From NCBI GenBank assembly GCA_963665325.3, contig CAXXWS020000002.1, positions 992,001-1,056,000 of the forward strand: a DNA stretch of 64,000 bases, read 5' to 3'. The stretch comes from Alphaproteobacteria bacterium (GTDB taxonomy: Bacteria > Pseudomonadota > Alphaproteobacteria > Bin95). Of this stretch, positions 4,073-23,520 are shown one piece after another (within the stretch, counting starts at the first letter, position 1; every line of letters begins with the position of its first letter). The position numbers and the translations under genes were made by a program. The notes under the pieces are model-generated. The model had not been told where the DNA came from and searched no databases. It saw only the letters and a list, made by a program, of their open reading frames with translations.

Positions 4073-7000
4073 ATGGTCGCGACGTTCGTCGAGCTCAGGT
4101 CTTCGGCCGTCACGGTCTCCTATTTCGAGCGGGACGGCTACTACGCGAAGAACGACCCGGAGCACCGACAGGCAAGCTTCTGGCACGGGGGCGCGGCGCA
4201 GGCGCTGGGCCTGAAGGGCCATGTGCGCCCGAAGCGGTTCGAGGCCGTGCTTGCGGGGTTCGTGCCGGGCACGGACATCCGGCTGGGGCGGATGCGCGAG
4301 GGCGAGCGCGATCACCGCCCCGGCTGGGACCTTACCTTCTCGGCGCCGAAGTCGGTGTCGATCGAGGCGCTGGTGATGGGCGACCGGCGGGTGATCCGGG
4401 CGCATGACGAGGCGGTGCGCGCGACGCTCGACTGGGTGGAACGGGACCTGTTGCAGACGCGGGGGTGGGACCCGGCGACGCGGCGGCGCCCGCGGGTGAA
4501 GGCGGGCGGCATGGTCGCGGCCGGGTTCCGGCACCTGACCAGCCGCGACCGGGACCCGACGCTGCACACGCACTGCGTGCTGGCCAACATGACGCGCAAT
4601 GCGGCCGGCGAGTGGCGCAGCGTCGAGCCGACAGCCATCAAGTGGAACAAGAAGCTGATCGGGTCCTATTACCGCAACGAGCTGGCGCGGCGGCTGGAGG
4701 CGCTCGGCATGGCGGTCGCGCCGCGGCTGGTCGGACGCATCCCGGGGTTCGAACTTGCGGGCTACTCGCGCGATTTCGTCGAGGCGTTCTCGGCCCGGCG
4801 GCTGGCGATCGAGGCGGACCTGAAGCGCCGCAACCTGCCATACACGGCGAAGAACGCGCAGGCGGCGGCGCTGCGCACCCGCAGGCGCAAGAGCGAGGAG
4901 AGCCTGGCGGACCTCGTGCCGGAATGGCGCGCGCGGGTCCGTGAGCTGGGCCTCGTGCGCAAGAAGGCGGAGCTCGCGCCGCCCCGGCCGCTCGACCCGG
5001 TGACAGGCGAGCGGACGGCGCCGCCATGCATGCCGGCGCTCCATATGACGGCGAACGAGCTCAGGCGGCAGAGGCGCGCGCCGGCCCTGCCGAAGCTGCC
5101 GCGCGACGGGGCGGCGGTCCGGGCGGACAAGGCGTCCCTGCGGCTGGCGCGCTCGACGGCGCGGGCGGAACTCTCATATGAGCCGGCGCCAGGCCTGCCG
5201 GAAGCGGTCGCGCGCGCGGTGGCGCATGTCGAGGAACGGCGGGTGCGCATCCCGGAGGCCGAGATAAGGGCCGTTGCGCTCGGCCATGCGCCGGGGCGCT
5301 ACACGCTGGCAGAGGTCGATACCGCCATCGCACGCCTGGTGCGGAGCGGCGAGCTGGTCGAGACCGGGAGCCGGGGCGCTGACCGGGCCTTCGTCACCGA
5401 CCGCGCCGTGAAGACCGAGCGGCGCATGCTGGCGTCGATGCGCGCGGCGCGCGGCGAGGGGCGGGCCGAAGCGGACCCGGACACGGTCGCCGCACGGCTC
5501 CGGGAGAGCGGCCTCACGAGCGGCCAGCAGCAGGCGGTCCGCACGATCCTGCTCTCCCTCGACCGGATCGTCGGCGTGCAGGGCCATGCCGGCAGCGGCA
5601 AGACCACCATGCTGCGCACGGTGAAGGAGTTGCTGGACGGCAGGACGATCATGGGCCTTGCGCCCTCGGCGTCGGCGGCCAGGGTTCTGGCAAGGGAGGC
5701 GGACATCCCGTCCCGGACGCTGCAATGGTTCCTCACCCGCCACGGGGACCTATCCGATCCCGCGCGGTTCGCCCGGGCGCGGGCGGAGTTCGGGCGCGCG
5801 GTGCTGGCGGTGGACGAGGCCTCGATGATCGACACGGTGCGCATGGAGGCGCTGCTCCGGATCGCGCGCACCCTCGGCGTGGCCCGCATTGTCCTGGTCG
5901 GCGACACGGCGCAGCTCAGGGCCGTCGATGCGGGCCAGCCCTTCCGCGTGCTGCAGAAGGCCGGCATGGCGACGGCGCTCATGGACGAGGTGCTGCGCCA
6001 GAAGGACCCGGAGCTGAAGACGGCGGCGGGCAGCGCCCGGGCGGGCGAGCCGGGTGCCGCCATCGCCGGCCTGGGCCGGCGGGTGCATGAATATCCCCGC
6101 GAGGAGCTGGGACTGGAGGCGGGCCGGCGCTGGCTGGCGCTCTCGCCGGAGGACCGCGCCGACGCCCTCATCCTGGCGCCCACCCATGCGATCCGCCGGC
6201 AGGTGAACGAGACCGTGCGCGAGGGGCTGGCGGCGGAGGGTCTGCTGCACGGGCGCGTGCTCGCGATCGACCGCCTTGTGGACCGCCGCCTGACGCGCGC
6301 GCAGGCCTCCGACATACGCAGCTACGAGCCGGGCGACACCATCGTCTTCCACCGCGACGTCTTCGGCTGCCGGACGGGCGACGTCTGCATGGTGACGGGC
6401 AAGGATGAGGGGCATGTGGCGATGGACGGCCCGGACGGCGGCGAGCGCCGGTTCCGGCCCTCGGGCAATGCGGCGGCATATTTCGGGCTCTACGACGCGG
6501 AGCGGATCGAGGTCATGGCGGGCGACCGCATCCGCTGGACCCGCAACCGCAAGGCCCCGCCCGCGCGGTTCGGCCATCCTCGTCAGCCGGACCTGGTAAA
6601 CGGCGGCGAGGCGGAGATCGTGGAGATTGACCGCCAGCGGGTGCTGTTCCGCGACGATGCCGGCCGGACGTTCCCGCTCCGGCGCAAGGACCCCCAGCTT
6701 CGCCACCTGGACCATGCATACGGCTCCACCGTGCATGGCGCGCAGGGCCGCACCGCGCGCGCCGTCATCGCGGTGCTGGACGCGCACGGCGCCGTCGACC
6801 GGGCGATGTTCCACGTCGAGGTGAGCCGGGCCTCGGAGTCGTTCCTGCTGCTGACCGACGACCGCGAGGCGCTGGTGGAGATGCTGGAGGTGCGCCCCGA
6901 CCGCGAGGACGGCGCACTGGAGGCGCTCGGGCTCGACCCGGCCGCTCTGCCCGTCGTCGAGCCGGAGCTGTTCGAGGCGCTGGCGGCGGACTGGCGCACC

Positions 7001-9650: not shown

Positions 9651-10079
9651 ATGGCGATGGGTGCGTTTTCGTTTCGCGGCTTGTTGCGTGCGCTTCTCTT
9701 GATTAAGATCAAGTCATCCGGCCGGATCGCCGGATCGCCGGATCGCCGGATCGCCGGATCGCCGGATCGCCGGATCGCCGGATCGCCGGATCGCCGGATC
9801 GCCGGATCGCCGGATCGCCGGATCGCCGGATCGCCGGATCGCCGGATCGCCGGATCGCCGGATCGCCGGATCGCCGGATCGCCGGATCGCCGGATCGCCG
9901 GATCGCCGGATCGCCGGATCGCCGGATCGCCGGATCGCCGGATCGCCGGATCGCCGGATCGCCGGATCGCCGGATCGCCGGATCGCCGGATCGCCGGATC
10001 GCCCCACCTGCGTCCGCGTGACGGCCATGAGCGTTTCTGCATGGCTGCGCCGGCCGGGCTGTCCTTCCTCCCCGCCTGA
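9651..10079 (+). CDS. Leader ORF reading through the 8-bp repeat; putative out-of-frame 5' end of autotransporter 1
   Basis: GGAGG at 9644-9648 before ATG 9651/9657; reads (RIAGSPDR)n and stops at 10079; one base out of frame with the ORF at 10018. Confidence 0.5.
   Translation: MAMGAFSFRGLLRALLLIKIKSSGRIAGSPDRRIAGSPDRRIAGSPDRRIAGSPDRRIAGSPDRRIAGSPDRRIAGSPDRRIAGSPDRRIAGSPDRRIAGSPDRRIAGSPDRRIAGSPHLRPRDGHERFCMAAPAGLSFLPA
9721..10003. repeat. Simple sequence repeat (GCCGGATC)x35
   Basis: 280 bp of perfect 8-bp units (9721-10000) plus GCC. Confidence 0.99.
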
Positions 10080-13000
10080 GTCTTCGCACGCCGGCGGCGA
10101 GCGTTCGCCTTCCCGCCGGCCCCCCAACGCTTCCGACAGTCTCGATGCTTCTTCCGCGCGCGGCGTCGTCGCGCGCGTGGGTTCCGCCATCCGCCGGCTG
10201 CGCCCCGCCCTCGCGGCTGCGCTGCTCTCCCTGCCGCTCTTCGCCGGCCTGACCACCGGGGCCGCCGCGCAGTCGGCGGTCGAGTGCAGCACCGCCAATG
10301 ACGAGGGCTCCTACACGGTGCCCGTCAACTGGGCGCTGAAGCCCTCGGGCGTCGCCGCCGGCGGTAAGTTCCGGCTGCTGTTCATCACCTCGACCACGCG
10401 CGACGCCACGGCGACCGGTATCGCCACCTACAACACGCATGTGCAGACCGCCGCCAAGGCCGGGCACAGCGCGATCTCCGACAGTTGCGGCAATCTCTTC
10501 AAGGTTGTCGGCTCGACCTCCGCGGTGGACGCGCGCGACAACACAGGGACCACGGGCACGGGGGTGGAGATATACTGGCTGAACGGCAACAGGCTCGCCA
10601 ACAACTACGCCGACTTCTACGACGGGAGCTGGGATGATTACGGCAGGAAAAACGAGAGTGGAGGCGATACGAACGACAATATCGTCACCACAGGCAGCAA
10701 CAATGACGGCACTAAACACTCATGGTTCTTAGGTGATACCTTCGTAGTTCGGCAAGGTAACGCGGGCGATTCGACCGCAGGACCTTTGGATGAGAGTAGT
10801 AATGGTGTTCCTGGTGCTTCATCACATCATTTCTACGGCCTCTCCCCCGTCTTCAAGGTGGAGGCCGCAAGCGAGTACACGATCAGCTTCGATCCGGCGG
10901 TTTACACTTTGTCCGAGGCCGATGGGTTCGTCGACGTGACCGGCACTCTGTCGGCGGCGCAGACGAGGGCTGTCACCATACCGTTCCGCTACGAATTCCC
11001 GGACCCAGGCGCCGGATACCGGAATTTCTCCCCCGTGCCCTGGGTGACCGTCCCTGCGGGGCAGACGAGTTTCACCCTGCGCGTCCCGATCCTCGACAAC
11101 AGCCTGTTCGAGAATAACGATCTTGTCGTTATCACTGTGCCGGGGGATGCGAGCGCAAGGGCCGACCTCGTCATCCTGGACGACGAGACCGCCAGGGGCT
11201 ACGCGACTCACGAGGCCTCGGATGGCAGTTACTCATGCATCAGCCGGGGCAGGGACATCCTGGTGGATGACCAATCGGGCGGCACGATAGCGGTTCAGCA
11301 GCCCGGCTGGTGGGTGGGCCAGCCGCCGCCGGGTCTGGTGGTGGACTGGGACCGGGACAACTACGCGGTCGGCGACACCGCGACGATCACGTTCCGCACG
11401 TCGGACGGCTCGCGCTCCTGCGCCGGCATCGAATTCTGGCTCAGCGTGAGCCAGAGTCCCCACCAAACGTGGAATAACGGGCTGCCGCCGCAGCCGGCGG
11501 TACTCCAGTTCCCCAGAGACAGTCACCGCGTGTTCGTAACGCTGGGCCGCGGCCAGACGGAGGTCAGCCGGTCGTTCAAGGTCCTGGCGCCGGGCATGGC
11601 GATTTTCCAGATCAAGAAGGTGTCGAACAGGACCCCCTGGAACCTGGGCCGTCTGGGCGCCAAGCTGCGCGACATGCCGACACCGGTGGACCGCGACGGA
11701 ACCGCGCTGACGGTCAGCCGGGACCTGTGGGGGGCGGGGGCCGCCACCGAGGTGACGGCGACCGTCCACCCGGGCGTGTACTTCCAGTCGGCATCGCGGG
11801 AGGTGCAGGAGGATGCCGGGACGGTGAACCTGACGGTGGCCGTCAATCCGCCGCCGGCCACGTCCCATACGCTCGTCTACACCCTGTCCGGAACCGCGAC
11901 GTGGGACGACGACTACAACATTGCTGGCGCGACCGATAGCGGCGGCGCCGTTACGGTGCCCGCGAATGCCGGCAGCGTGACCATTCCGGTGACGATCGTC
12001 GACGACTCGGTCGATGACGACGGCGAGACAATCGTGGTCCGTCTGGCGACGAGCGGCGATTACCGGCCCGCCACGCCCGACAGCGTGACGCTCACGATCC
12101 GCAATCACGATCCGGTGCCCGAGCCGGAGGTGAGCATCGCGGCCGGGGCCGGCGTGACCGAGGGCGGCAGCGCGAGTTTCACGCTGACGGCCGATCCGGC
12201 GCCGACGGCGCCGCTGGACGTGAGCGTGACGATTGCCGCCGAGGGCGAGTTCGGCATTGCGGCCGGCGAGCGGACCGTCACCATCCCGACCACGGGCAGT
12301 TATGAGCTGACCCTTGCGACGGCGGGCGACGGCGTGGACGAGCCCGATGGCTCGGTGACCGCGACGGTGTACGCCGGCAACGGCTACACGGTCGGCGCCG
12401 CTTCCTCCGGGACGGTCGCCATCGCGGACGACGACGCGCTTCCCGCCGCCCATCCGCTGGTGAAGCATGCGCCGGTGGTCAAGCGGTTCTTCGACCGGAT
12501 CACGGCGAGGAACCAGCACGGCAACGGCGCCGCCGGGGGATGGAACAAGCGCTTCCTGAAGGCGATGGGGCACCCGGACTATGTCGACTACCCGCAGGCC
12601 GCGGTGACGGTGGCGGATGCGACGCGGATATGGAACCACGGCGGTCCCGGCGCCAACACGGCCTGGAACGGCACGGTCGCGGCGGTGACCTATGCCGAGC
12701 GGTATTTCGCCGGGCTGGTGACGCCGCCCGATCCGGTACTCATTCCGGAGATCTCCATTGCGGCGGGTGCCGGCATTACCGAGGGCGGCGATGCGGTATT
12801 CACGGTGACGGCGGACCGGGCACCGGATGCCAACCTCTCTGTGGCGCTCACGGTGTCGGAAGCCCAGGGCAGCGACTTCGTGGCCGCGTCCGACGAGGGC
12901 ACGAAGACGGTGACCGTCCTTGCCGGCGAGACTTCGGGCACGCTTACCGTGAAGACGGAGGACGACAGGGCGGACGAGCCCGACGGCTCGGTGACCGCGA

Positions 13001-14976
13001 CATTGGCAGCCGGCAGCGGCTACACGGTGGCGGCGTCCCCGCAGGACGCGGCCTCGGTTGCGGTGGCCGACAACGACGCGGCGGGCGCTCTGCCGGTGCT
13101 TTCCGTGGAGAGCAAGTCGGTGCAGGAAGGCGACGGGAAGGTGACGTTGTGGGCCACCATCGACCCGTTCCCGTCGAAGGCGGATTTCCCGGAACTTTAC
13201 AGGACGACCCGGCTGAAGCTCCGCACCATCGAGGGGACGGCATGGGACGGTGTCGACTATGTCGGCATCCCCGCCAGCTTCGGGATCACGGAGGCGTGCA
13301 ATTTCCACACCACCCTGGCGCCGAACGGGAAGCACGGGTGCCGGATCGACGAGGTGACGATTCTGGACGACTCCCATGACGATGGCGGGGAGACCTTCCA
13401 GCTTGAGGTGGGATTCGCGGACAACGAGCCGGCGCCGCTGCGCGGCCTGGGCGAGGCGCGCGGCACGGTCACCATCGAGAACTCGGACCCGCTGCCGGGG
13501 GCATGGCTGGCGCGGTTCGGTCGTGCGGTGGCGGAACAGGCTCTGGACGGCATTACGGCCCGCATGGCGGCACCACGCACGCCGGGCATGCAGGGCACGA
13601 TTGCCGGGCAGTCTCTCGACTTCAGCGGCGGGGCAAGCCTGTCTCAGTCCCCCGGATCGTTGTCCGGGGCAGGCGGGGCAAGCTTCGGCGGGGAGACGCA
13701 GGCGCAGGCGCGGGGCATGACGATGCAGGAGGTTCTGCGGGGGTCGAGCTTCTCGCTGACCGGCGAGGCGGACAGCGTCGGCGGCACGCTTGCCTTCTGG
13801 GGCGGGACGCCCGGTGCGGGCGGTCTTGTGTCCGGGTCGCAGTTTGCCGGCAATCAGCGCGGCGACCCCGGATCGGGGTCCGGGGCAGGCGGCACGGCGG
13901 TGCATCTCAGCGGCGAGACGAGCGCGGCGCTTCTGGGCACGGACTATGCGCAGGGCCCGTGGCTGGTCGGGTTCGCACTGTCGCAGAGCCGGGCCGAGGG
14001 CAGCTATGCGGCCATTGGCGGCGATGTGGCGGCGCACGCAAGCGACGGCGAGGTTGAGGCATCATTGACGGCGACGATCCCCTATGCGGCGCTGGCGGTC
14101 TCGGAGCGGTTGAAGCTCTGGGGTGCTGCGGGCCAGGGGTCCGGCGATGTGACGGTGAAGACCGCGCTGGGCGGGAGCCTCAGCGCCGACACGGCCTGGA
14201 GCATGGCGGCGGCGGGCCTGCGGGGCGACCTGCTGGCTCCTTCTGCCGAGGGGACAGGGCCGTCCCTGGCGCTGGTATCGGACGCCTTGTGGGTGCAGAC
14301 CGCGTCGGAGAAGACGCGCGACCTTGCGGCGTCGGAGTCCGATGTGAGCCGGCTCAGGCTGGGCCTTGAGGGCAGCTGGGGACTGGCGCTGGCCGGCGGC
14401 GGCAACATTGTGCCAAAGCTGGAGCTTGGGGCGCGTCATGACGGCGGCGATGCGGAGACGGGCTTCGGGGTGGAACTCGGCGGCGGTCTTGCCTGGCGCG
14501 ACCCGGGCCTCGGGCTGACGCTCGACCTGTCGGGGCGCACGCTGGTCGCGCATAACGATGGCGGGCTGGAGGACCGGGGTATCTCGGCACAGCTCGCCTT
14601 CGACCCGGAGCCTGCGAACGGTCGGGGCCTGTCCTTCGGCCTCGGCCAGGACTGGGGCGGGCGGGCGCAAGGCGGCCTCGACACGCTGTTCACGCCGGAG
14701 CCGCTGGAGGACCGCGAGGGCAGCAGCGAGGCGGAGGCGCGCTGGACGGCGGAGGCGGCCTGGGGCTTCCCGGCGTTCGACGGGCGTTTCACCGGCAGCC
14801 CGCATGTCGGGTTGGGGCTTACGACGGACGCGCGCGACTACAGTCTCGGCTGGCGGCTGACGCCGGAAGCCGCGACCGCGCCCGACCTCTCCTTCGGTCT
14901 CAGGGCGACACGTAGGGAAAGCGGCAACGCCCGGCCGGAGCATACCGTCGGCGTGGACATTACGGCGCGGTGGTAA
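10018..14976 (+). CDS. Autotransporter adhesin-like protein 1 (N-terminal lectin-like domain, Calx-beta/Ig-like repeats, C-terminal beta-barrel)
   Basis: Signal-like RRLRPALAAALLSLPLFAGLTTGAAAQ; Calx-beta-like motifs (VTIPVTIVDDSVDDDGETIVV, DEPDGSVTAT); barrel motifs AWLARFGR and GARHDGGDAETGFGVELGGG; terminal W. Confidence 0.85.
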   Translation: MTAMSVSAWLRRPGCPSSPPESSHAGGERSPSRRPPNASDSLDASSARGVVARVGSAIRRLRPALAAALLSLPLFAGLTTGAAAQSAVECSTANDEGSYTVPVNWALKPSGVAAGGKFRLLFITSTTRDATATGIATYNTHVQTAAKAGHSAISDSCGNLFKVVGSTSAVDARDNTGTTGTGVEIYWLNGNRLANNYADFYDGSWDDYGRKNESGGDTNDNIVTTGSNNDGTKHSWFLGDTFVVRQGNAGDSTAGPLDESSNGVPGASSHHFYGLSPVFKVEAASEYTISFDPAVYTLSEADGFVDVTGTLSAAQTRAVTIPFRYEFPDPGAGYRNFSPVPWVTVPAGQTSFTLRVPILDNSLFENNDLVVITVPGDASARADLVILDDETARGYATHEASDGSYSCISRGRDILVDDQSGGTIAVQQPGWWVGQPPPGLVVDWDRDNYAVGDTATITFRTSDGSRSCAGIEFWLSVSQSPHQTWNNGLPPQPAVLQFPRDSHRVFVTLGRGQTEVSRSFKVLAPGMAIFQIKKVSNRTPWNLGRLGAKLRDMPTPVDRDGTALTVSRDLWGAGAATEVTATVHPGVYFQSASREVQEDAGTVNLTVAVNPPPATSHTLVYTLSGTATWDDDYNIAGATDSGGAVTVPANAGSVTIPVTIVDDSVDDDGETIVVRLATSGDYRPATPDSVTLTIRNHDPVPEPEVSIAAGAGVTEGGSASFTLTADPAPTAPLDVSVTIAAEGEFGIAAGERTVTIPTTGSYELTLATAGDGVDEPDGSVTATVYAGNGYTVGAASSGTVAIADDDALPAAHPLVKHAPVVKRFFDRITARNQHGNGAAGGWNKRFLKAMGHPDYVDYPQAAVTVADATRIWNHGGPGANTAWNGTVAAVTYAERYFAGLVTPPDPVLIPEISIAAGAGITEGGDAVFTVTADRAPDANLSVALTVSEAQGSDFVAASDEGTKTVTVLAGETSGTLTVKTEDDRADEPDGSVTATLAAGSGYTVAASPQDAASVAVADNDAAGALPVLSVESKSVQEGDGKVTLWATIDPFPSKADFPELYRTTRLKLRTIEGTAWDGVDYVGIPASFGITEACNFHTTLAPNGKHGCRIDEVTILDDSHDDGGETFQLEVGFADNEPAPLRGLGEARGTVTIENSDPLPGAWLARFGRAVAEQALDGITARMAAPRTPGMQGTIAGQSLDFSGGASLSQSPGSLSGAGGASFGGETQAQARGMTMQEVLRGSSFSLTGEADSVGGTLAFWGGTPGAGGLVSGSQFAGNQRGDPGSGSGAGGTAVHLSGETSAALLGTDYAQGPWLVGFALSQSRAEGSYAAIGGDVAAHASDGEVEASLTATIPYAALAVSERLKLWGAAGQGSGDVTVKTALGGSLSADTAWSMAAAGLRGDLLAPSAEGTGPSLALVSDALWVQTASEKTRDLAASESDVSRLRLGLEGSWGLALAGGGNIVPKLELGARHDGGDAETGFGVELGGGLAWRDPGLGLTLDLSGRTLVAHNDGGLEDRGISAQLAFDPEPANGRGLSFGLGQDWGGRAQGGLDTLFTPEPLEDREGSSEAEARWTAEAAWGFPAFDGRFTGSPHVGLGLTTDARDYSLGWRLTPEAATAPDLSFGLRATRRESGNARPEHTVGVDITARW
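13650..13674 (+). repeat. Intragenic palindromic element (CCCCGGATC-N-GTCCGGGGCAGGC family)
   Basis: CCCCGGATCGTTGTCCGGGGCAGGC; related copies at 13866, 45308, 47537 and 48991. Confidence 0.7.
13866..13890 (+). repeat. Intragenic palindromic element
   Basis: CCCCGGATCGGGGTCCGGGGCAGGC encodes PGSGSGAG, in a segment absent from the paralogous barrel. Confidence 0.75.
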
Positions 14977-15049: not shown

Positions 15050-16204
15050 TCAGTTGCGGCAAGGCGCCATCGCGGCGGCCATTGCCGCTCCGACCCGTTC
15101 TGCGGCGGCTTCGATGTCGCGGTCGGCGAGATGGGCGTAGCGAAGCGTCATCTGGACATCCGCATGGCCGAGCAGGCGGGAGACGACCGGCAGCGGTACG
15201 CCGTTCATAACGGCATGGCTCGCCATGGTATGACGCAGGTCATGAAGGCGCACATCCTCGATCCCGGCCTCGCGGCGGACCCGGTCCCACAGCCCGAGGG
15301 TCGAGCAGCGCGGGCGTGCCGGGTCGCATGGCGAAGGGAACACGAACAGGCTGGCCGTGCGCGGCTGCCGGTCGAGAATGGCACGGGCCTGGCTGTTGAG
15401 CGGAACCGTCCTCGGCCCCGTCTTGGAATCGCCGAGCGCCAACATCCCGTCGCGGACTTCCGACCGGCGCAGGCCCATGATCTCGCCCTTGCGGCATCCG
15501 GTGAGCAGCAGCAGCCGGATGATGTCCGCCTGCGGACGCCTGTCCTTGCGGGTCTGCGCATCCAGCACGGCGTGCAGGCGTCCGAGCTCCTCCGTGGACA
15601 GGAACCGCGTGAGCTTCGCCCGCCGGTTGAACGCGATGCCCTGTGCGGGGTTGCGTTCGATATGGCCGCAGGCGACGGCGAAATTCAGGATCTGCCGGAG
15701 GCGCCTGAGTACGTGATTGGCGTTGCCGGGCGCGGTGCGGCTGAAGCGGTCGAACCAACGCCCGATCCGCGTCTCACTCATGCGGTCCAGCGGCTTCGAC
15801 CCGAAGACCGGAAGAAGCTGGCTCGCCAGCGCATACCGGGCGGTTTGCTTCGTCGAAGACTTGTAGCGGTCGTAGTGCGCCGCCTTCCACGGCCCCGCGA
15901 CGAACTCCCGGAACAACGGGACCGGACAAGCCGCCTCGATCCTTGTCACAGGCTTCGGGTTCGCACGGCGCGCGTGGCATTCCCTGCGGACCTCCTCAAG
16001 GCTCTTCACGCCGACCGGACCGAGCGAGATGCGCTTCGTGCGCCCGCCGACGTCCAGAAGCAGCACATAGCTGCACCCGCCGGAGGGCCGCACCCGGACG
16101 CCGAGACCGGAAGCGCGGCTGTCCCAGACCGTGTATTCCCGCTCGCGAGGGCGGAGACGGGCAATGGCGGCGTCGGTGAGTTTCATCCGTTCCCTGCCTG
16201 CCAT
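15050..16204 (-). CDS. Tyrosine recombinase/integrase with N-terminal arm-binding domain
   Basis: KLTDAAIARL...VWDSRASGLGVRV arm domain; catalytic LLLLTGCRKGEI, DSKTG, HDLRHT, LLGH, TLRY. Confidence 0.92.
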   Translation of the reverse strand: MAGRERMKLTDAAIARLRPREREYTVWDSRASGLGVRVRPSGGCSYVLLLDVGGRTKRISLGPVGVKSLEEVRRECHARRANPKPVTRIEAACPVPLFREFVAGPWKAAHYDRYKSSTKQTARYALASQLLPVFGSKPLDRMSETRIGRWFDRFSRTAPGNANHVLRRLRQILNFAVACGHIERNPAQGIAFNRRAKLTRFLSTEELGRLHAVLDAQTRKDRRPQADIIRLLLLTGCRKGEIMGLRRSEVRDGMLALGDSKTGPRTVPLNSQARAILDRQPRTASLFVFPSPCDPARPRCSTLGLWDRVRREAGIEDVRLHDLRHTMASHAVMNGVPLPVVSRLLGHADVQMTLRYAHLADRDIEAAAERVGAAMAAAMAPCRN

Positions 16205-16224
16205 CGCTCAGGCTCCCCCCAAGA

Positions 16225-18300
16225 TTACGCTTCATACTGCGCCCCAGTACTTCGTTGCCCCACAAGATCGGGGAAACGTCCTTGTTTTGAAGTCTTTGGT
16301 TGTTTGGCAGGTGGTGGATCGGGGAGTTCGAACAGGTATCCGGGTTTGTCGTTATAGGCGTGTCCGCGCAGAAGGCCGGCCCTGTGCCATCGGTATACCG
16401 TTTCGTCGGACACCCCGAGCCGGTTGGCGGCTTCCAGGGCGGTCAACAGCCCGAGTTCGCGCAGCCGTTGATGGCGGGACTTGAGAGCGTATTTGTCCCG
16501 GACCACCCTTACCAACATCGGATTGAAGGCGTGGCCGTATCCGCTTCGGTACCCGCGCTCGTTGAGGATTGTTGCGATCTCGCCGATGGTGTGGTCGTTC
16601 AACAGCCTGTCGACCTCGGCGACGACATCGTTGCTGGTCTTGTGGATTTCAGACGCGAGTGGACCCGGTTTCCAGGTAAGCTGTCGGGTCGCGCCACCGC
16701 GCAGCCGCACCCCCAGGCTGCGCGTAGCCTTGGTCAGTGTCACGTCCTCGATCAGCAGCCGCGCCATTCGCTTGCGCTCGCGGTGCGGCGTCGCCGGATC
16801 GTTCCACAGACGGGGGAAGTCACTGACCAGCGCGAGGATTCGCTCGCGTTGCCGATCGTCCAACCTCTGGCCCGGTTCAGCGCGGCTGCACTCGAGCTCG
16901 CGCTGTGCCTCGTCGAGGGCCCGAAGCTTCGCATTCCACTCCGCCTCCAGCACGTTGGCCACCATCCGGTTGTCGGGATGGGTCTGCATGAACCGCTGCC
17001 GCGCCAAGTCCGCTTCCTCGCGGGCGCGCTGAACCCGTTGAGCGCGCCACAGATCCGCCTCCCCGGCGCGTGCGGCGAGTTCGTCCTGTACCTGCAGCGC
17101 CATGTCCAGCGTGAGCGGTGTCATCAGCTCGACCAGCAGCTCGCCAATCGCTTGGTCTATGGCGCCGCCGGATATGCTCTGACAATTCCCGGCGCCCGCC
17201 GTCTCGATCTTTTCACGGGCGCACAGGTAGTAGGGGTTCAGCCCCCCTTTGCGGCTGCGATAGTGCACCGTCATGTTCCTGCCGCACACGCCGCAAATGG
17301 CCAGGCCCTGCAGCAGTGCGGGCCCCTCGCGCGGCGCACTGCGGCGCCCCGCGGCGCGCGCTTGAGCGTTGTCCCGGAGCTGGCGCTCATTCTCCTCGAA
17401 CCGCTCCCAGGTGATATAGCCCGGGTGGGCATCGCGCAGCAGGACTGTCCATTCCTCGCGTGCCAGGCGTTTCTTCTCGGCGCCCCCTCCGGGACGCCGC
17501 CGGCTGCGGCTGCGCCCGAACGCGAAAGCGCCGGCGTATCGCGGGTTGTGCAGAATCTGCAGCGCGCGCGTGAGCTTCAGAGGCTTCCAATGCAACTCGC
17601 CCCTGTGCGGCCCGCTGCGAGGACGGTACGGAAACAGCAATTTCTCGTTGTTGAAATGCCTGACCGTGGCGCTGGCCGAGCCGGTCCTGGTGAAGGTGTC
17701 GAACAGCAGGCGCAGACTGTGCTGCACCTGCTCGTCGGGGTCGAGCGCCACATTGCCGAGTGGGTCGTATACCAGCCCCACCGGCAGCGTCATCCTCAAC
17801 TCCCCGCGCTTGGCCTTGGCCAGCACTCCGCCCCGCATCCGGGCGCGCATCATGTGCAGCTCGGCCTCGCTCATGGTTCCTTTGAGCCCGAGCAGGAGCC
17901 GGTCGTTGAAGTCGCCGGGATCGTAGACGCCGTCCTCGTCGAGGATCAGCGTCTCGCTCAGGGCGCATATCTCGAGCAGGCGATGCCAATCGGTGGAGTT
18001 CCTCGCGAGCCTGGACACTTCGAGCCCGAGCACGATGCCGGCCCGGCCCATGCCGGCCTCGGCGACCAGACGCTGGAACCCCTCTCGGTCGGCGTCGGCG
18101 CCGGAGAGACCGAGATCGCTGTCGATCACGACGATGCTCTCGGTCGGCCAGCCCAGTGCCACGGCCCGCTCCCGCAGCGCGTACTGGCGCCGCGTGCTCT
18201 CGCCATGTTCGAATACCTGGCGCTGAGTAGACTGACGCACATACAGATAGGCATCGCGGCTCAGGTGGCTCGTCGTCACCTTCTGGTGAGCGGGATTCAT
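16225..18300 (-). CDS. Large serine recombinase (resolvase, recombinase, zinc ribbon and C-terminal HTH domains)
   Basis: AYLYVRQST catalytic Ser motif, LEVSRLARN, LLLGLKGTMSEAEL, LHNPRYAG, CGVCG...YYLC zinc ribbon. Confidence 0.93.
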   Translation of the reverse strand: MNPAHQKVTTSHLSRDAYLYVRQSTQRQVFEHGESTRRQYALRERAVALGWPTESIVVIDSDLGLSGADADREGFQRLVAEAGMGRAGIVLGLEVSRLARNSTDWHRLLEICALSETLILDEDGVYDPGDFNDRLLLGLKGTMSEAELHMMRARMRGGVLAKAKRGELRMTLPVGLVYDPLGNVALDPDEQVQHSLRLLFDTFTRTGSASATVRHFNNEKLLFPYRPRSGPHRGELHWKPLKLTRALQILHNPRYAGAFAFGRSRSRRRPGGGAEKKRLAREEWTVLLRDAHPGYITWERFEENERQLRDNAQARAAGRRSAPREGPALLQGLAICGVCGRNMTVHYRSRKGGLNPYYLCAREKIETAGAGNCQSISGGAIDQAIGELLVELMTPLTLDMALQVQDELAARAGEADLWRAQRVQRAREEADLARQRFMQTHPDNRMVANVLEAEWNAKLRALDEAQRELECSRAEPGQRLDDRQRERILALVSDFPRLWNDPATPHRERKRMARLLIEDVTLTKATRSLGVRLRGGATRQLTWKPGPLASEIHKTSNDVVAEVDRLLNDHTIGEIATILNERGYRSGYGHAFNPMLVRVVRDKYALKSRHQRLRELGLLTALEAANRLGVSDETVYRWHRAGLLRGHAYNDKPGYLFELPDPPPAKQPKTSKQGRFPDLVGQRSTGAQYEA

Positions 18301-18599
18301 GCGGCTTCCCTCCCCATATGACCGTTGAGCATGGCGATCAAAATGTCGATCGCCGACGTCTCGACCCCGGTGGGCAACGGCCCGGGCGAGGTCGCCGGGC
18401 ACAGGGCGGGCGGCGGGGCAGGCAGTTCGGCGAGGGCATGCAGCCAGGCCGCGACGCCGCGCAGCGCCACCAGGGCGATCCCGTGGCGGTCGTGGGCGGC
18501 GCCGGGCTCGACGGCATGACGGCGCATCCGCTCGTAACCGTGCCCGTAGGCGGAATGCTCCGCCGCGGCGAGCGCGGCGCAGGGCGGGTTGTGCATCAT
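18297..18599 (-). CDS. Small hypothetical protein of the serine recombinase element
   Basis: ATGA overlaps with both neighbours; YERMRRHA...GIALVALRGVAAWL. Confidence 0.65.
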   Translation of the reverse strand: MMHNPPCAALAAAEHSAYGHGYERMRRHAVEPGAAHDRHGIALVALRGVAAWLHALAELPAPPPALCPATSPGPLPTGVETSAIDILIAMLNGHMGREAA

Positions 18600-19054
18600 C
18601 GTTTTTTTCCCCGCGCGAGGGCGCGGTCGATGCTGCGGCGATGAACCGAGATGGCGAAGCGTGCGCGCACCAGCTCGACCAGGTCGGCGGCGGTCAGTTC
18701 CGGTTGTTCGCTTTTCGCCGCCCGCAGCGCTTCGACCACCTCGTCGCTGAGCTTGTGCGCCCGGCGCGGTCCCGGCCGGTCCGGCAGCAGGCCCGGCAGC
18801 CCGCCCGCCTCCCAGGCGCGCTGCGCCTGATACCAGGTGGGCCGCGAGACGCCGAAGCTCGCGGCCGCGTGGCTTACCGGCACGCCGTCCTCGCGCACGC
18901 GGCGCAGCATCTCGTACCTGACCTGGAGCAGGTCGCGCGGGTCGAAGAACGGGTTCGACAGGAACAGCTCGTCGCGCACCGCCTCCGCATTCGGGTTCAG
19001 GCAGCCGTGCTCCTTGAGGGAACGGGTCTTTGCGTCGGCGGGGCGTCTGGCCAT
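18596..19054 (-). CDS. Helix-turn-helix domain protein of the serine recombinase element
   Basis: FFDPRDLLQVRYEMLRR, AAASFGVSRPTWYQ (HTH), GLPGLLPDRPGPR. Confidence 0.85.
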   Translation of the reverse strand: MARRPADAKTRSLKEHGCLNPNAEAVRDELFLSNPFFDPRDLLQVRYEMLRRVREDGVPVSHAAASFGVSRPTWYQAQRAWEAGGLPGLLPDRPGPRRAHKLSDEVVEALRAAKSEQPELTAADLVELVRARFAISVHRRSIDRALARGKKR

Positions 19055-19236
19055 CGCACGGGCTCCGTCGGGAAAGATATGTAAATATGTTTATGCACAT
19101 ATCCGCCACCGTATCAAGTCTCGTCTTCCCCTGCACAGGAGCAAACGGTCTAAAATACCAAGCATTATACTCAATCCACACCACCTCTCCGGCCACTTCA
19201 ATGTGCTGCACTTCCCGCTTATGCGCAAAAACGATC

Positions 19237-19542
19237 TTACACACGCGGCAAAATCTCCTTGACAGTCCCCGCCCCGCCATCGCCCTCCCTCCCGGCGCCA
19301 CCGTCTCCGTCCAGGCTGTCCAGCAATGCCGCCAACGCGAGCAGATCCGAGACACGGAACGCCGACCGGCCCGACCCCACCCTCACAAACGGATCCTCGC
19401 AGGCAACGCTGGTCCAGGCTTGCCGTATGCTGCACAGTGTCCCGTCATCTCCTGTGTAGTGCACATGCCCCACCCCCATGACCGGCTTGTTCTCGACCAG
19501 TTCGAACTCACGGTCGTGAAGAGGATGAAACGGATGCGTCAC
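19237..19542 (-). CDS. DUF5372-like small protein; only a GTG start in the integrated state
   Basis: VTHPFHPLHDREFELV...WTSV...DPFV...GRSAFRVSDLLAL; the frame is open back to the element end. Confidence 0.7.
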   Translation of the reverse strand: MTHPFHPLHDREFELVENKPVMGVGHVHYTGDDGTLCSIRQAWTSVACEDPFVRVGSGRSAFRVSDLLALAALLDSLDGDGGAGREGDGGAGTVKEILPRV

Positions 19543-19955
19543 TCGGAAGGTCTGCCGCTCGACGCGTCGTCGAGATGCAGTTGAGTGCCCTGTCCCAGCG
19601 CGGTGCCGACCGTCTCGGCGGCATCCTGCACCATGGTGTCGGCAAGGTGGATGTATTTCAGCGTCGTCTCCGCCTTGCGGTGCCCAAGCATCCTGCCGAT
19701 CGCCAGCACGGTCTCGCCTTGCCTGAGCGCCAGACTCGCCACCGTGTGCCGCAGATCGTGAAGATGCGCGTCCTCAAGCTCCGCCTCGGCGCGGACCCGC
19801 TTCCAGAAACATTCCAGCCAGTTGATGCTCCGGGGGCGGTCGGCCCGCGACGCGGGGAACATCCAGCGTCCCTTCCGCTCAAGGCCGTCGAGAACGGCGC
19901 GCGCCGGCCCGGAGAGCCATACGGTCCTCGGCCCCGTCTTGCTGTCGCTAAGACG
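19539..19955 (-). pseudogene. C-terminal fragment of a second tyrosine integrase (N-terminal part lost; last codons displaced by the serine recombinase element)
   Basis: RLSDSKTGPRTVWL...HDLRHTVAS...MLGHRKAETTLKY; similarity stops near 19955 where AT-rich sequence begins. Confidence 0.85.
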
Positions 19956-20096
19956 AAAACATACCCTAAGATATTGTAAATATGGAGATATCTACTTTTA
20001 TGTAATCACACCGCATGCGGATGGCTTCAACTCCGCGACCCCTCACGTCCCCGTAGGGGGTAAGCCTTCGGGCGAGCCGTGGAGAGGACGACGATA

Positions 20097-20978
20097 TCAG
20101 CGATTGAGGGTTCGCCGCCAATCGCGTCGGAGGGGTCGGAGCCAGACATCCTTGCGGGGCTTTTCGTAGAGCTTGTCGCGGTCGTAGCGTCCCCGGCCCT
20201 GGGTGGTTCCGACATGGATCCAGCCCGACGCCCGGTAGACAGCGCCGGTGTAGCGCGGGGTCTCGACGAAGGTCTCGATGAGCACGGGGTTGGTGTTGTA
20301 GCGTTCGGTCCAGTCCCCGGGCAGGCGGCGGCGCACGATGGCGAGGATGTGCGAGCCGAGGTTGGGAATCGCGATCCACGGCAATATCAGGAACCTGGGG
20401 TTGTCCACCACCAGCGGCAGGTTCTTCTCGCGCAGCTCGGGCGCCCAGCCGATGAAGCGGTCGCGCGGGGCGAGCTTCCAGGCGGCGGTGGAGAAGCCGA
20501 GCATGGCGATGGGCCAGCCGTTGCGGTCGTGGACGGCGTAGCGCATCTGGGCGCCGACCAGGGTCTTGTATCCGAGGTAGTGGTAGCGGGCGACGAACTC
20601 GTTCCACAGCCTGCCCTCGCGAGTCTCGCGCACGACGGTGCGGAAGTCGAGCGGGCGCACCTCGTCAAGCGTCGTCGGTGCGGGGAACAGCGGCGGCTCG
20701 GTCTCCGGTCCGAAGACCATGGGCTTGGGCCGGCCCTGCTTACCCTTCGGCGGCGGCAGGGCGATCACCCCGTCGCGGTGCATGGCGAGCATGGTGACGC
20801 GGGCCATCATGTCCTTGAGGCCGCCGTCGGGCTTGAGCCAGCCGATGCGCCGGCAGAACTCCTTCGACAGGGCATGGCGGTTGAACGCCGGAGGCCCGGC
20901 GATCAGGGAGCGCAGCAGCGCCATTTCATCGGCGGTGAAGTCGCGACCGTAGTAGCGGCACTCGATGGCGCCGGTCAT
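20097..20978 (-). CDS. DUF4338 domain protein (domain family shared with Druantia DruA)
   Basis: RYYGRDF, LWNEFVARYHYLGY, AAWKLAPRDRFIGW, RFLILPWI..PNLGSHIL, ETFVE, GAVYRASGW; ATGA-coupled to the transposase. Confidence 0.8.
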   Translation of the reverse strand: MTGAIECRYYGRDFTADEMALLRSLIAGPPAFNRHALSKEFCRRIGWLKPDGGLKDMMARVTMLAMHRDGVIALPPPKGKQGRPKPMVFGPETEPPLFPAPTTLDEVRPLDFRTVVRETREGRLWNEFVARYHYLGYKTLVGAQMRYAVHDRNGWPIAMLGFSTAAWKLAPRDRFIGWAPELREKNLPLVVDNPRFLILPWIAIPNLGSHILAIVRRRLPGDWTERYNTNPVLIETFVETPRYTGAVYRASGWIHVGTTQGRGRYDRDKLYEKPRKDVWLRPLRRDWRRTLNR

Positions 20979-23362
20979 CCCGGGGCCGTGAACTTGAGCC
21001 TGCGCTCCTCGCTCATCGACCAGGGCAGCCAGGCCGACAAGTCGTCCGGCGGCTGGCGGCCATTTTCCGCACACGCCGCCAGCCACGCTTCCAGCCAGCG
21101 CAGCACGTCGATGCCGTTCATCGAGAGCGTGCCGACGACCGAGTACATGATCGCGGTGAACTCCGCGCCGTCCGCGCTGTTGGAACCGAAGCTCAGCCCC
21201 CGTCCGATTGCCGGAGCACGCAAGATTCTTTCGGCGACATTATTCGTGAGGGGCACTTGCGGGTGGTCGACGAAGACGCACAGCCCCTCGCGATGGTTGA
21301 GAAGCGAACGCAGCGCCTTGCCTTCGCGCGCGTGCTCCGGCAGAGCGGCCAGCTCCGCCTCGGCGTGCGCGAACAGGCGGTCGAGCGCCTTCTTCAGTTT
21401 GCGCGTCGCTTTCCTGAACGCCGCAGTCTGGCGTTTGCGGCCGGGCTTGTAATGTTCCAGCCGCGCATCGTTCAGCCGGAAGATCTCCGCGATCCGCTCG
21501 ATCCATTCCTGGCACCATTGCGTCAGCCGTTCCTGGCCGGCCGCGGCCTCGATGTAGTCGCGGCGCACATGGGACCAGCAGAAGGCGAGGATCACCTTGC
21601 CCCCGAGAAGGCGCACGAGCCGCTTGTATGCGCTGTAGCGGTCGCAGACGACGATCGTGTGGGGCAGGGCTTCGGCGAACAGCTTGAGCGCCGCCTCGGC
21701 GCTGCGGCTCGGGTCGATGTGGAAGCAGACCGCGTCGTGGCTGACCGAGGTCCACAGCCAGGCCCGGTTCGACCGATCTTCCCCGCGCAGCTCCTGCACA
21801 CGCCAGGAGGTCTCGTCGGCATGGCGCACCACCGCCTCGTTCTGGTGCGCGAGAATCGCCTCGAACAGCGGCAGGAACAGCGGCACGAAGCGCTTCAGGC
21901 TGTCGGCCAGCGTCCCCGGCGACACCGCCAGCCCCTGGGCCGACATCCATGCCGCGGTCCGGCTCAGCGGGCGCAGCCCGACACTGAGTTCGAAGAGGAA
22001 GCGCGCCCAGAAGGTGATTCCGTAGGGCGTGCCGCGGAACAGCCGCGCCACCGGGGGCGCGGACACTTCCATCGGCGAGGACGCGCACTCGCAGGTCCGG
22101 CGCATGCGTGGGCGCTGGATCACGCGCTTGTGGGCCTTGACCTCGATCTCGACGAGGGTGGATTCCTCGACGCCGTTCGCGGCGTAAGGCTCCCCGCATT
22201 GCGCGCACACGCACGCCTCCGGCGGCGGGGCGTGGACTTCAGGGCGCTCCTCGAGCCCGGGCCGCCGAGTGCGGCCGTGACCGGGCGCGCCGCGCTGCTG
22301 GCCGCGCTTGCGGTCCGAGCGCGGCTTGTTCTGCTGCTCGCTCTTGCGCCCATAGAGCCTCTTCGACAGCACCTTCCCGGTTGCACGGAGCTTCGTGGTC
22401 TCGGCTTCCAGCGCCTCGATCCGGTTCCGCGCGCCCTTCACGGTTCTGCGCAACCGGGCGTTCTCCCTCGACAGGGTCTTGATCGTTTTCTTCTGGCGCC
22501 GCGACCGCCTCAGGACGGTGCGCAGGTGAGCCACCTCGTCGAACGGCAACTTCGTCAGCGTCGCCCCGGCCGCGCGCAGCTTGGCAATCCGGGCCTTCAG
22601 CTTCTCCCGCCTGGCCTCGGACATCTTCAGCGCATAGCGCAGCCCGGACACTTCGTGGGACAGCGACCGGGACCGGATCTCGGCGTCTCTCAGGAACGTC
22701 AGCTCCCTGCGGAAGCTCAGGTTCTCGCGGGACAGCGCCTTGGCGGTTTCCCTGATGCTTTCCGACCTCTCCTTCTCCTCTTCCAACTGCTTGTTGAGCC
22801 GGGCAATCTGGGTGTACAGCGATTTGACCGACATCTCGCGTGCCGGCGCCATTCGACTGCGCCGCGCGGCCTCGGATCGCTCAGCGGCGTCCGTCGACAC
22901 GAGACCGCGCATTCGACCGATCACGATGCGCGCGGATACGATCCTCGCGCCTTCGCCCGGCTCAAGGCCGGGGGCGCACAGAAGTTTCCCGGGGGCGCAC
23001 AGAAGTTTCTCCAACTGCGCCAGCTCCGTCTGCAACAAGGGGACGGTCTTGACCGCGCGGCGCAGTTCCCTGGTCTCTTCCTCGACCGCCGTCAGCTTGC
23101 TGCGGCACTTGCCGAACCGCGACTTCCACGAACCGGCATCGCTACGGGCAGCCACTTCGGCCCAGCGCAATTCCTCAACGCGCGCCTCCGCCGCGTCCGC
23201 GCGCGCTTGTTCCCGATCCGCACGGGCGCGCTCACGCTGCAACAGCGTCAGCAAATCGCACGGCTCGTGCTCTGGCCGGGGCGCGGGAGAAAACCGTATC
23301 CCCCCGTCGACCTCGACCGGCGTCAGGTCTGTCGTGGCAAGATCAGCGTCGAGAACCACCAT
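20975..23362 (-). CDS. tnpC: IS66-family transposase with long N-terminal coiled coil
   Basis: RLYGRKSEQ, RGQQRGAPGHGR, CAQCG zinc finger, HADETSW, VCDRYSAY, CWSHVRR, LTNNVAERILR; in-frame 21-bp duplication at 22968-23009. Confidence 0.9.
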   Translation of the reverse strand: MVVLDADLATTDLTPVEVDGGIRFSPAPRPEHEPCDLLTLLQRERARADREQARADAAEARVEELRWAEVAARSDAGSWKSRFGKCRSKLTAVEEETRELRRAVKTVPLLQTELAQLEKLLCAPGKLLCAPGLEPGEGARIVSARIVIGRMRGLVSTDAAERSEAARRSRMAPAREMSVKSLYTQIARLNKQLEEEKERSESIRETAKALSRENLSFRRELTFLRDAEIRSRSLSHEVSGLRYALKMSEARREKLKARIAKLRAAGATLTKLPFDEVAHLRTVLRRSRRQKKTIKTLSRENARLRRTVKGARNRIEALEAETTKLRATGKVLSKRLYGRKSEQQNKPRSDRKRGQQRGAPGHGRTRRPGLEERPEVHAPPPEACVCAQCGEPYAANGVEESTLVEIEVKAHKRVIQRPRMRRTCECASSPMEVSAPPVARLFRGTPYGITFWARFLFELSVGLRPLSRTAAWMSAQGLAVSPGTLADSLKRFVPLFLPLFEAILAHQNEAVVRHADETSWRVQELRGEDRSNRAWLWTSVSHDAVCFHIDPSRSAEAALKLFAEALPHTIVVCDRYSAYKRLVRLLGGKVILAFCWSHVRRDYIEAAAGQERLTQWCQEWIERIAEIFRLNDARLEHYKPGRKRQTAAFRKATRKLKKALDRLFAHAEAELAALPEHAREGKALRSLLNHREGLCVFVDHPQVPLTNNVAERILRAPAIGRGLSFGSNSADGAEFTAIMYSVVGTLSMNGIDVLRWLEAWLAACAENGRQPPDDLSAWLPWSMSEERRLKFTAPG

Positions 23363-23520
23363 GCGCCCGACGATAGCGCAGGGTTCTCCGCGTTACCAGC
23401 CCCCTTGCGGCACCTCGATTCGCTCTGGATCACGAACCGTTGTCGGATTTCTCACGGCTCGCCCGAAGGCTTACCGTAGGGGTGTAAGCCTTCGGGCGAG
23501 CCGTGGAGAGGACGACGATA

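Follow-up and report, generated by a model that had tools for sequence, protein, structure and literature searches.

A four-gene serine-recombinase element between two integrase reading frames

We analysed a 64,000-nt stretch of DNA (the window; positions 992,001 to 1,056,000 of contig CAXXWS020000002.1, assembly GCA_963665325.3) from a member of the Alphaproteobacteria. On its minus strand, an integrated mobile element with four genes is placed between two tyrosine-integrase reading frames, int1 and int2 (Table 1). In the order of reading, these genes encode a small protein of the DUF5372 family, a helix-turn-helix (HTH) protein, the product of a third open reading frame (ORF3) and a large serine recombinase (LSR), with ATGA stop/start overlaps joining HTH to ORF3 and ORF3 to the recombinase. 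The original prediction for this locus, made from the letters of the DNA, held that excision of the element builds a start codon for the DUF5372 gene, alters the recombinase and repairs the host gene, and it supposed a state-sensing switch in which the small protein could set the direction of recombination. The strings that it quoted are present at their minus-strand places and the four genes are real.

The recombinase matches the Pfam families Resolvase (1.6e-20), Recombinase (1.3e-14) and Zn_ribbon_recom (2.3e-10) and shows a weak match to the SPbeta integrase structure; its R-Q-S catalytic block has no variation in 26 sequences. The DUF5372 protein (PF17342) matches its Pfam profile over positions 1-77 (E = 3.3e-21, 75.6 bits versus a cut-off of 25), while an NCBIfam search returned no family for it, and ORF3 was without a family match in both Pfam and NCBIfam. 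The AlphaFold model of DUF5372 (mean predicted local distance difference test score, pLDDT, 76.4) is an SH3-like barrel. A Foldseek comparison of this model with the PDB gave nothing at E <= 0.001, the best rows being SH3-like parts of ribosomal protein eS4 and NdhS, and a comparison with the Atlas gave just DUF5372 itself plus weak unnamed rows; neither the sequence nor the fold matched a solved directionality factor. The HTH protein is similar to the DNA-binding N-terminus of IS630 and IS481 transposases (3.4e-15 and 2.3e-14, below the full-length cut-offs), which are the kinds of transposases whose genes harbour relatives of the element. A scan of the integrated sequence (15900-19900) returned no promoter-like site and one terminator-like site, which lies within ORF3 and is not above shuffles. 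Folding of the DUF5372-HTH spacer RNA (z = -0.52) gave no usable signal.

Relatives were sampled as the best 80 DUF5372 loci, with one genome per species. At least part of a recombinase gene lies downstream of DUF5372 in 67 of these 80 loci, which makes DUF5372-HTH-(ORF3)-recombinase a conserved module; its hosts include Alpha- and Gammaproteobacteria, Longimicrobiales, Acidobacteriota, Planctomycetota, Chloroflexota, Actinomycetes and others. The source genome contains one full copy of the element. A Longimicrobiales genome holds two copies of a relative, L065 and L067, in different host genes; their identity of 99.97 % over 3357 bp points to recent mobility. The window element is an LSR integrating element and belongs to a widespread family of 3.3-3.4 kb that has apparently not been described so far.

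Table 1 Features of the element and its insertion site in the window
Feature	Position	Strand	Remarks
Integrated serine-recombinase element, both TG core copies included	16220..19597	-	Homologous ends and matching cores
Left crossover dinucleotide TG (attL core)	19596..19597	-	
P' arm of attP, GGACAGGGCACTCAACTGC	19577..19595	-	Also N-terminal-extension codons of DUF5372, including the conserved S-T-A
DUF5372 ORF body at the left end	19237..19595	-	Open from the crossover; stop 19239-19237
Start of the Pfam DUF5372 domain (codon GTG)	19542-19540	-	
HTH protein, 152 aa (HTH_23/HTH_32)	18596..19054	-	
ORF3, 100 aa	18297..18599	-	Kept among closer relatives
Large serine recombinase, 691 aa, C-terminal HTH	16225..18300	-	Stop TAA 16227-16225 within the element
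Arm ATG, in frame with DUF5372 only over the attP joint	16235-16233	-	23 codons upstream of Val codon 19542
P arm of attP, GCAGTATGAAGCGTAATCT	16222..16240	-	Joint-ORF start codon plus final recombinase codons and stop
Right crossover dinucleotide TG (attR core)	16220..16221	-	
int1 3' remnant, tyrosine integrase residues 269-387 of about 390	19598..19952	-	Host
int1 last 3 codons and stop (ggg gga gcc TGA), 3-nt spacer, int2	15050..16219	-	Host
int2, intact second integrase gene	16204-15050	-	Host

The element crosses over at a two-base-pair core

The ends of the element are marked by the limits of homology to its relatives. At five loci (L029, L030, L032, L033 and L035), homology to the left end starts directly after TGG, at position 19594, and in L030, which is internally deleted, homology to the right end ceases at TGG. 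The end positions of a further relative are fixed by the L065/L067 pair, whose members occupy different sites. The geometry of attP was described as a 19-nt right arm starting with G(C/T)AGTATGA, followed by a 2-nt core and then a left arm, also of 19 nt, with TCAACTGC at its end, and this rule was applied blindly to 44 elements, namely the window element and the 43 of 80 fetched loci in which both ends could be located.

Under the 19+2+19 rule, the left and right cores were identical in 42 of the 44 elements, and eight core dinucleotides were found (TG, TC, CG, AC, TT, CT, AG and TA). L036, the nearest relative, likewise has its element between int1 and int2, and its core reads TC on both sides. 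The two mismatches, L053 (TT/CG) and L055 (CT/CG), belong to one genome with at least six copies and probably reflect an exchange of flanks through recombination between copies. The cores of their sister copies L054 and L090 agree (CT/CT). On both sides the arms share the consensus GGTGCAGT(A)TGA, so that attP, at about 40-50 bp, consists of two imperfectly inverted 19-nt arms plus further inverted bases outside them. These comparisons indicate that the element crosses over at a 2-bp core, TG in the window copy, without target duplication. A 15-nt target duplication (ALGQG / ILGGA) had also been considered and was dropped because merely 6 of 15 bases match and the TG core accounts for both sides.

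With crossover at TG, the excised circle is predicted to measure 3376 bp, and the empty site would read gcg ctg ggg gga gcc TGA, that is, ...ALGGA-stop, 3 nt before the ATG of int2. At least six int1-int2 junctions without an insert occur in the source genome, with 81-89 % identity to the element flanks. In all six paralogues the int1 stop lies five codons past a conserved Ala-Leu and is followed by 1-3 nt and then the int2 ATG, and the predicted ALGGA-stop tail has the same length as these six. Repair of the host gene by excision, as originally proposed, would concern the last five codons of int1; the gene itself is merely a remnant, truncated at its 5' side near 19953 by an IS66/DruA-like element and with no N-terminal part in the window, and therefore no working host gene would be repaired.

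The DUF5372 reading frame runs across the joint

Joining the two ends of the element in silico brings the ATG of the right arm into frame with DUF5372. Of the 23 codons from this ATG to the Val codon at 19542, the right arm contributes five and the left end 17, and one spans the core. The attP core comes to lie inside an ORF of the element. This joint ORF is open and in frame in all 44 elements, with ATG as the arm start codon in 43 and GTG in one. No element has a stop in the DUF5372 frame of the joint, whereas the other two frames contain stops in 36 and 42 of the 44; among the 33 unique joints the corresponding numbers are 0, 27 and 31. The idea that other DUF5372-HTH-recombinase elements would also give an in-frame start on circularisation in silico was thereby borne out, and in many phyla. 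The three letters of the arm ATG are conserved at 97, 100 and 100 % in 35 unique arms.

The left-end stretch between the crossover and the Val codon behaves in the same manner: stops occur in 0 of 57 unique sequences in the DUF5372 frame versus 12 and 34 in the other frames. Shuffled linkers are open in just a fraction of 0.685 of cases, and the real linkers have a median pairwise identity of 0.5. Linker lengths of 31, 34 and 37 nt preserve the frame; L105 alone, with 35 nt, does not keep it. In the N-terminal extension, F-R-V just before the Val codon and S-T-A in the arm are conserved, and the residues TFRV form the first beta strand in the DUF5372 AlphaFold model. A purine-rich stretch lies 4 nt upstream of the arm ATG; it reads GAGGTG in 26 of the 33 unique joints and GGGGCG in the window copy. 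The recombinase genes end in different frames relative to the arm motif (...QYEA-stop; ...GAV-stop, in which TGA overlaps the ATG; ...EV-stop), and therefore recombinase coding does not explain why the motif is conserved.

At the start of the Pfam domain, the codon is GTG in 54, GTC in 17, GTA in four, GTT in three, ATA in two and ATT in one of 81 loci. Judged by this spectrum, it behaves as an internal Val/Ile codon and not as a conserved initiator. Eight of 77 loci have no canonical in-frame start whatsoever while integrated, and many database relatives of DUF5372 are called at 80-81 aa from an internal Met. We infer that the arm ATG is used for translation.

A joined form of a relative is present in a metagenome

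The joined form can be recognised by two half-site motifs that lie 23 nt apart, compared with 3.3 kb apart in integrated copies. A search of metagenome contigs with this pattern gave one match, L116, a contig of 1068 bp. It carries, in this order, a recombinase C-terminus (248 aa, open at the contig end), the right arm, a TT core, the left arm and DUF5372, and its sequence is exactly what recombination between the right and left ends of an integrated relative, L115, would give. Its DUF5372 ORF spans attP, begins with MKHAPSTALSTAAHTGEVTSPVRVTHPFHPL and encodes 102 aa with a Pfam match of 3.4e-26; the arm ATG shares letters with the recombinase stop (ATGA), and GTC stands at the Val position. 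The joined form thus occurs in nature for a relative of the window element and encodes the predicted full ORF. After correction of the crossover, the proposal that the full ORF of the small protein is assembled only on circularisation holds family-wide, and L116 supplies a joined form. A looser pattern applied to viral contigs returned L117 and L118, which are chance matches in phage genes without DUF5372.

Weighing of the alternatives

As a whole, the data are best explained by an integrated LSR element whose attP lies inside the 5' part of the DUF5372 gene, the full-length product being that of the excised state, and we consider this explanation probable. Several observations weigh against it or narrow it. 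L116 is the single joined-form contig found in the metagenome search and, taken alone, could stem from a circle or from a head-to-tail tandem. The joined-form pattern was found in none of 401 genomes (the source genome plus 400 genomes of its class) and in none of five multi-copy genomes. Of 21 public runs, all in the form of assembled contigs, X1, X2, X3 and X8 were compared with the window and showed neither the circle joint nor the precise empty site of the window copy, a result that weighs neither way because assembled contigs cannot show rare forms. Their contigs skip 3383-3407 nt with other letters between and with no back-joint listed; these skips are paralogous uninterrupted int1-int2 junctions, not the empty site of the window copy. 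The T and G of the arm ATG belong to the half-site motif in both arms (GCAGT-TGA) and the GAGGTG stretch doubles as an outer inverted repeat, so their conservation also has an explanation in DNA binding; the corresponding stretch of the window copy (GGGGCG) is weak as a Shine-Dalgarno-like sequence. Conservation is lacking in the middle of the N-terminal extension, where model confidence is low too, and the 44 elements are relatives, not independent trials. Canonical starts inside the left end exist at 27 of 77 loci (ATG in L037, L040 and L072, otherwise GTG or TTG); shorter products may therefore be made while integrated, which limits a circle-only product to the full-length form. In the window, this applies to GTG 19542, which overlaps the host-frame stop (GTGA), and a shortened DUF5372, maybe coupled to the host frame, may be made from this codon in the integrated state. 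The claim that DUF5372 has no start when integrated therefore goes too far for the window copy.

The last point leads to an alternative, namely that DUF5372 is a self-contained gene of 101 aa starting at GTG 19542, with the open frame and the ATG upstream of it as by-products of recombinase-binding sequence and high G+C that play no part in expression. Most database entries have 101 aa and start there, the Pfam profile begins at the same codon, GTG is the commonest form of this codon in the 81 loci, the GTGA overlap would permit coupled re-initiation, and the ATG and GAGGTG do sit in conserved half-site DNA. However, 27 of the 81 loci have GTC, GTA, GTT, ATA or ATT at this position, and such loci are often called from an internal Met (80-81 aa), which cuts the conserved domain. 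Moreover, the 57 unique, diverged upstream stretches contain no stop, their indels preserve the frame, the first beta strand takes in residues upstream of the Val, and L116 combines GTC at this codon with an intact ATG-started ORF in the joined form. We therefore regard a self-contained gene as improbable. Less probable still is that the integrated DUF5372 gene is read through or fused from the interrupted host gene, so that a host promoter and start would switch it on upon insertion into an expressed recombinase gene. The elements do insert in genes, the integrase-targeting subgroup is oriented sense, the host frame enters the element for 18 codons and ends in a stop that overlaps the Val codon (GTGA in the window; ATAA in L030 and L075), and some annotated proteins, e.g. 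P0012 and P0049, have host-derived N-termini. Yet most relatives lie antisense in transposase genes, and in-frame starts on the host side are sporadic, at varying distances, or absent. In the window, the host gene is a promoter-less remnant and its frame differs from the DUF5372 frame; therefore no fusion results.

The crossover assumed by the original prediction has, in our judgement, hardly any chance of being correct. It placed the exchange at a GC (19588-87 / 16230-29), from which followed a 3358-bp circle, a recombinase whose TAA comes from the host and which would be about 25 residues longer after excision, and an empty site ending in ALGQGVILGGA-stop. GC is indeed present at both places, and the joint built from it is also in frame. 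The TG core, however, lies 9 nt further out on each side, and the left-end homology of relatives begins 7-9 nt further out. At the corresponding sites of L036, the left side has GC and the right side AC, and the 19+2+19 rule gives TC at both junctions; the GC match is therefore a coincidence of the window copy. The expected empty-site tail would be five codons longer than those of all six paralogues, so that of this site the distance of 3 nt to the next integrase ATG was retained and the tail was not. The recombinase TAA is borne by the element itself, in the right arm and 4 nt before the crossover, as is the stop in the conserved right arm of relatives; therefore excision leaves the recombinase unchanged. 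Finally, the natural joint of L116 obeys the 19+2+19 rule. In the corrected joint, the ATG does come into frame with DUF5372 but with 18 nt more between it and the CAC codon than had been written.

Insertion sites and neighbouring elements

The surroundings of the window copy form a nest of mobile elements: directly upstream, at 19953-23400 (-), int1 is truncated by genes for a 795-aa transposase of the IS66 family and a DruA-like (Druantia) protein of 329 aa. On the other side, the integrases adjoin a gene for a 1652-aa repeat-rich protein (10018-14976, +), which is probably surface- or autotransporter-like. Tandem int1-int2 pairs, 1-3 nt apart or overlapping, are multi-copy in the genus (C1, C4, C5, L002-L010 and L029 in the source genome, and many relatives), and int1-int2 junctions are also numerous in G010 and G016. 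These pairs probably constitute a mobile element family of their own.

Ends of related elements were found at the 3' end of int2-type genes in the source genome (L029), G009 (L030, L034 and L035), G014 (L032 and L033) and G004 (L031). At the same loci, left-end relics of a sister element, about 140-260 bp long, lie behind int2 (L029, positions 5519-5700; L030; L032; L033; L034/L035; L031) and have ATA where the window has GTG. Several of these relics break at one shared point (...GCGAGGGTA), beyond which the DNA is unrelated, and this shared breakpoint suggests one old deletion that has spread along with the integrase pair. In L035 of G009 (5000-5400), a DUF5372 relic is fused to repeat sequence very similar to that of the 1652-aa protein.

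Outside the subgroup of the window element, most relatives lie antisense within DDE transposase genes. In six of ten host flanks tested (L064, L065, L078, L091, L094 and L107, examined to the right of the element; see also L077, L083, L092 and L096), a Pfam rve domain ends, at profile position 82-102 of 102, no more than about 30 residues from the junction and mostly right there. Insertion into rve genes takes place beside a conserved ...(S/T)-N/K-G..E-R motif, with a TT core within the Asn/Lys codon. To judge by these insertion sites, the family seems to target the recombinase genes that other mobile elements carry.

Proposed mechanism

The explanation that we favour, with attP inside the 5' part of the DUF5372 gene, could work as follows. 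The right end provides the purine-rich stretch and the ATG, overlapping the last recombinase codons, and the left end the remaining DUF5372 ORF. In the circle, or in a head-to-tail tandem, the genes would be read as a single unit of four cistrons, in the order HTH - ORF3 - recombinase - DUF5372 and with overlaps between stops and starts. Integration would then part the fourth cistron, DUF5372, from its start codon, from the operon and from upstream transcription, so that full-length DUF5372 would mark the excised state. The protein may act together with the recombinase on the circle, where it may favour or commit re-integration, or damp further excision or expression. That DUF5372 acts on the fate of the circle, be it through re-integration, a block of re-excision or feedback, is our best guess, by analogy with circle-junction promoters, which integration dismantles, and with the attP-in-gene switches of BPs and Mx8.

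A more far-reaching version, which we put forward tentatively and consider rather doubtful in its entirety, is that the split cistron is a topological sensor in a large, undescribed family of transposons homing into the recombinase genes of other elements. The putative targets would be tyrosine integrase genes, at their 3' end, or rve DDE transposase genes, at the end that carries the catalytic motif. Full-length DUF5372, made only on the circle and coupled to the end of recombinase translation, would set the reaction by committing re-integration or blocking a second excision, and integration would reset the sensor.

Relation to known systems

That an attachment site inside a gene can make expression dependent on the state of the DNA is a known principle. 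In mycobacteriophage BPs, attP lies inside the repressor gene 33, immunity depends on integration, and the integrated and excised forms encode different products (PMC4557955). Here too an attachment site within a coding gene of the element would have the state of the DNA read out as protein. BPs uses a tyrosine integrase, and integration alters the 3' end of the gene and removes a degradation tag, each form having its own start. In the window element, by contrast, the recombinase is a serine recombinase, the 5' end is split, and a 3.4-kb transposon-like element has the start at one end and the body at the other; gene 33 encodes a repressor, whereas DUF5372 is not a known repressor. In myxophage Mx8, attP lies in the int coding sequence and integration yields a recombinant gene with a new end (PMC6070905). 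The original prediction supposed such a change for the recombinase, but its stop stays with the element; the 5' end of DUF5372 would be remodelled instead.

A second group of systems uses promoters at the circle junction, such as those of TnpX in Tn4451/Tn4453, Pcirc of ICEclc and P3'end of ICEKp1, where expression of a recombination gene needs joined ends and is dismantled by integration; Tn4451 also resembles the window element in having a large serine recombinase (PMC13023037). Systems of this group assemble or reposition a promoter, whereas the window element assembles a reading frame. The Pjunc of IS911-type elements is a circle-junction promoter as well. In phage lambda, sib is a site beyond attP that is linked to int only in one topological state; the element likewise senses integration, but sib concerns the RNA stability of int and splits no coding frame. 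In skin, SPbeta (SprA/SprB) and gin in gerE, an LSR element sits in a host gene, excision restores the frame and a small partner sets the direction; each has a single developmental target and a factor with its own start (PMC5499854, PMC5595907, PMC5025042). The window element differs from them in having multiple targets (integrase or transposase genes) and four conserved genes.

A full-text literature search returned no paper on DUF5372. Further searches brought up neither an account of the family nor any case in which attP divides a start codon from the rest of its gene; most subscription journals and the supplements lay outside their coverage, so these results are not proof of absence. As a form of the known att-in-gene principle, a 5'-end split that a serine-recombinase transposon has kept across phyla appears to be new. 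Known ways for an element to sense its state are junction promoters, attP in a repressor or integrase gene, and sib. If the explanation is true, start and body at opposite ends would be the most direct readout of this state, with the protein made only while the DNA is circular, and it would give the DUF5372 family its first testable role. As a compact LSR system of four genes, whose 40-bp sites are defined and whose state reporter is built in, the element is also a candidate tool, and it is of interest for how LSR transposons control the direction of recombination. For the biology of the family, landing in conserved motifs of the recombinase genes of other mobile elements suggests a life as a 'parasite of parasites'.

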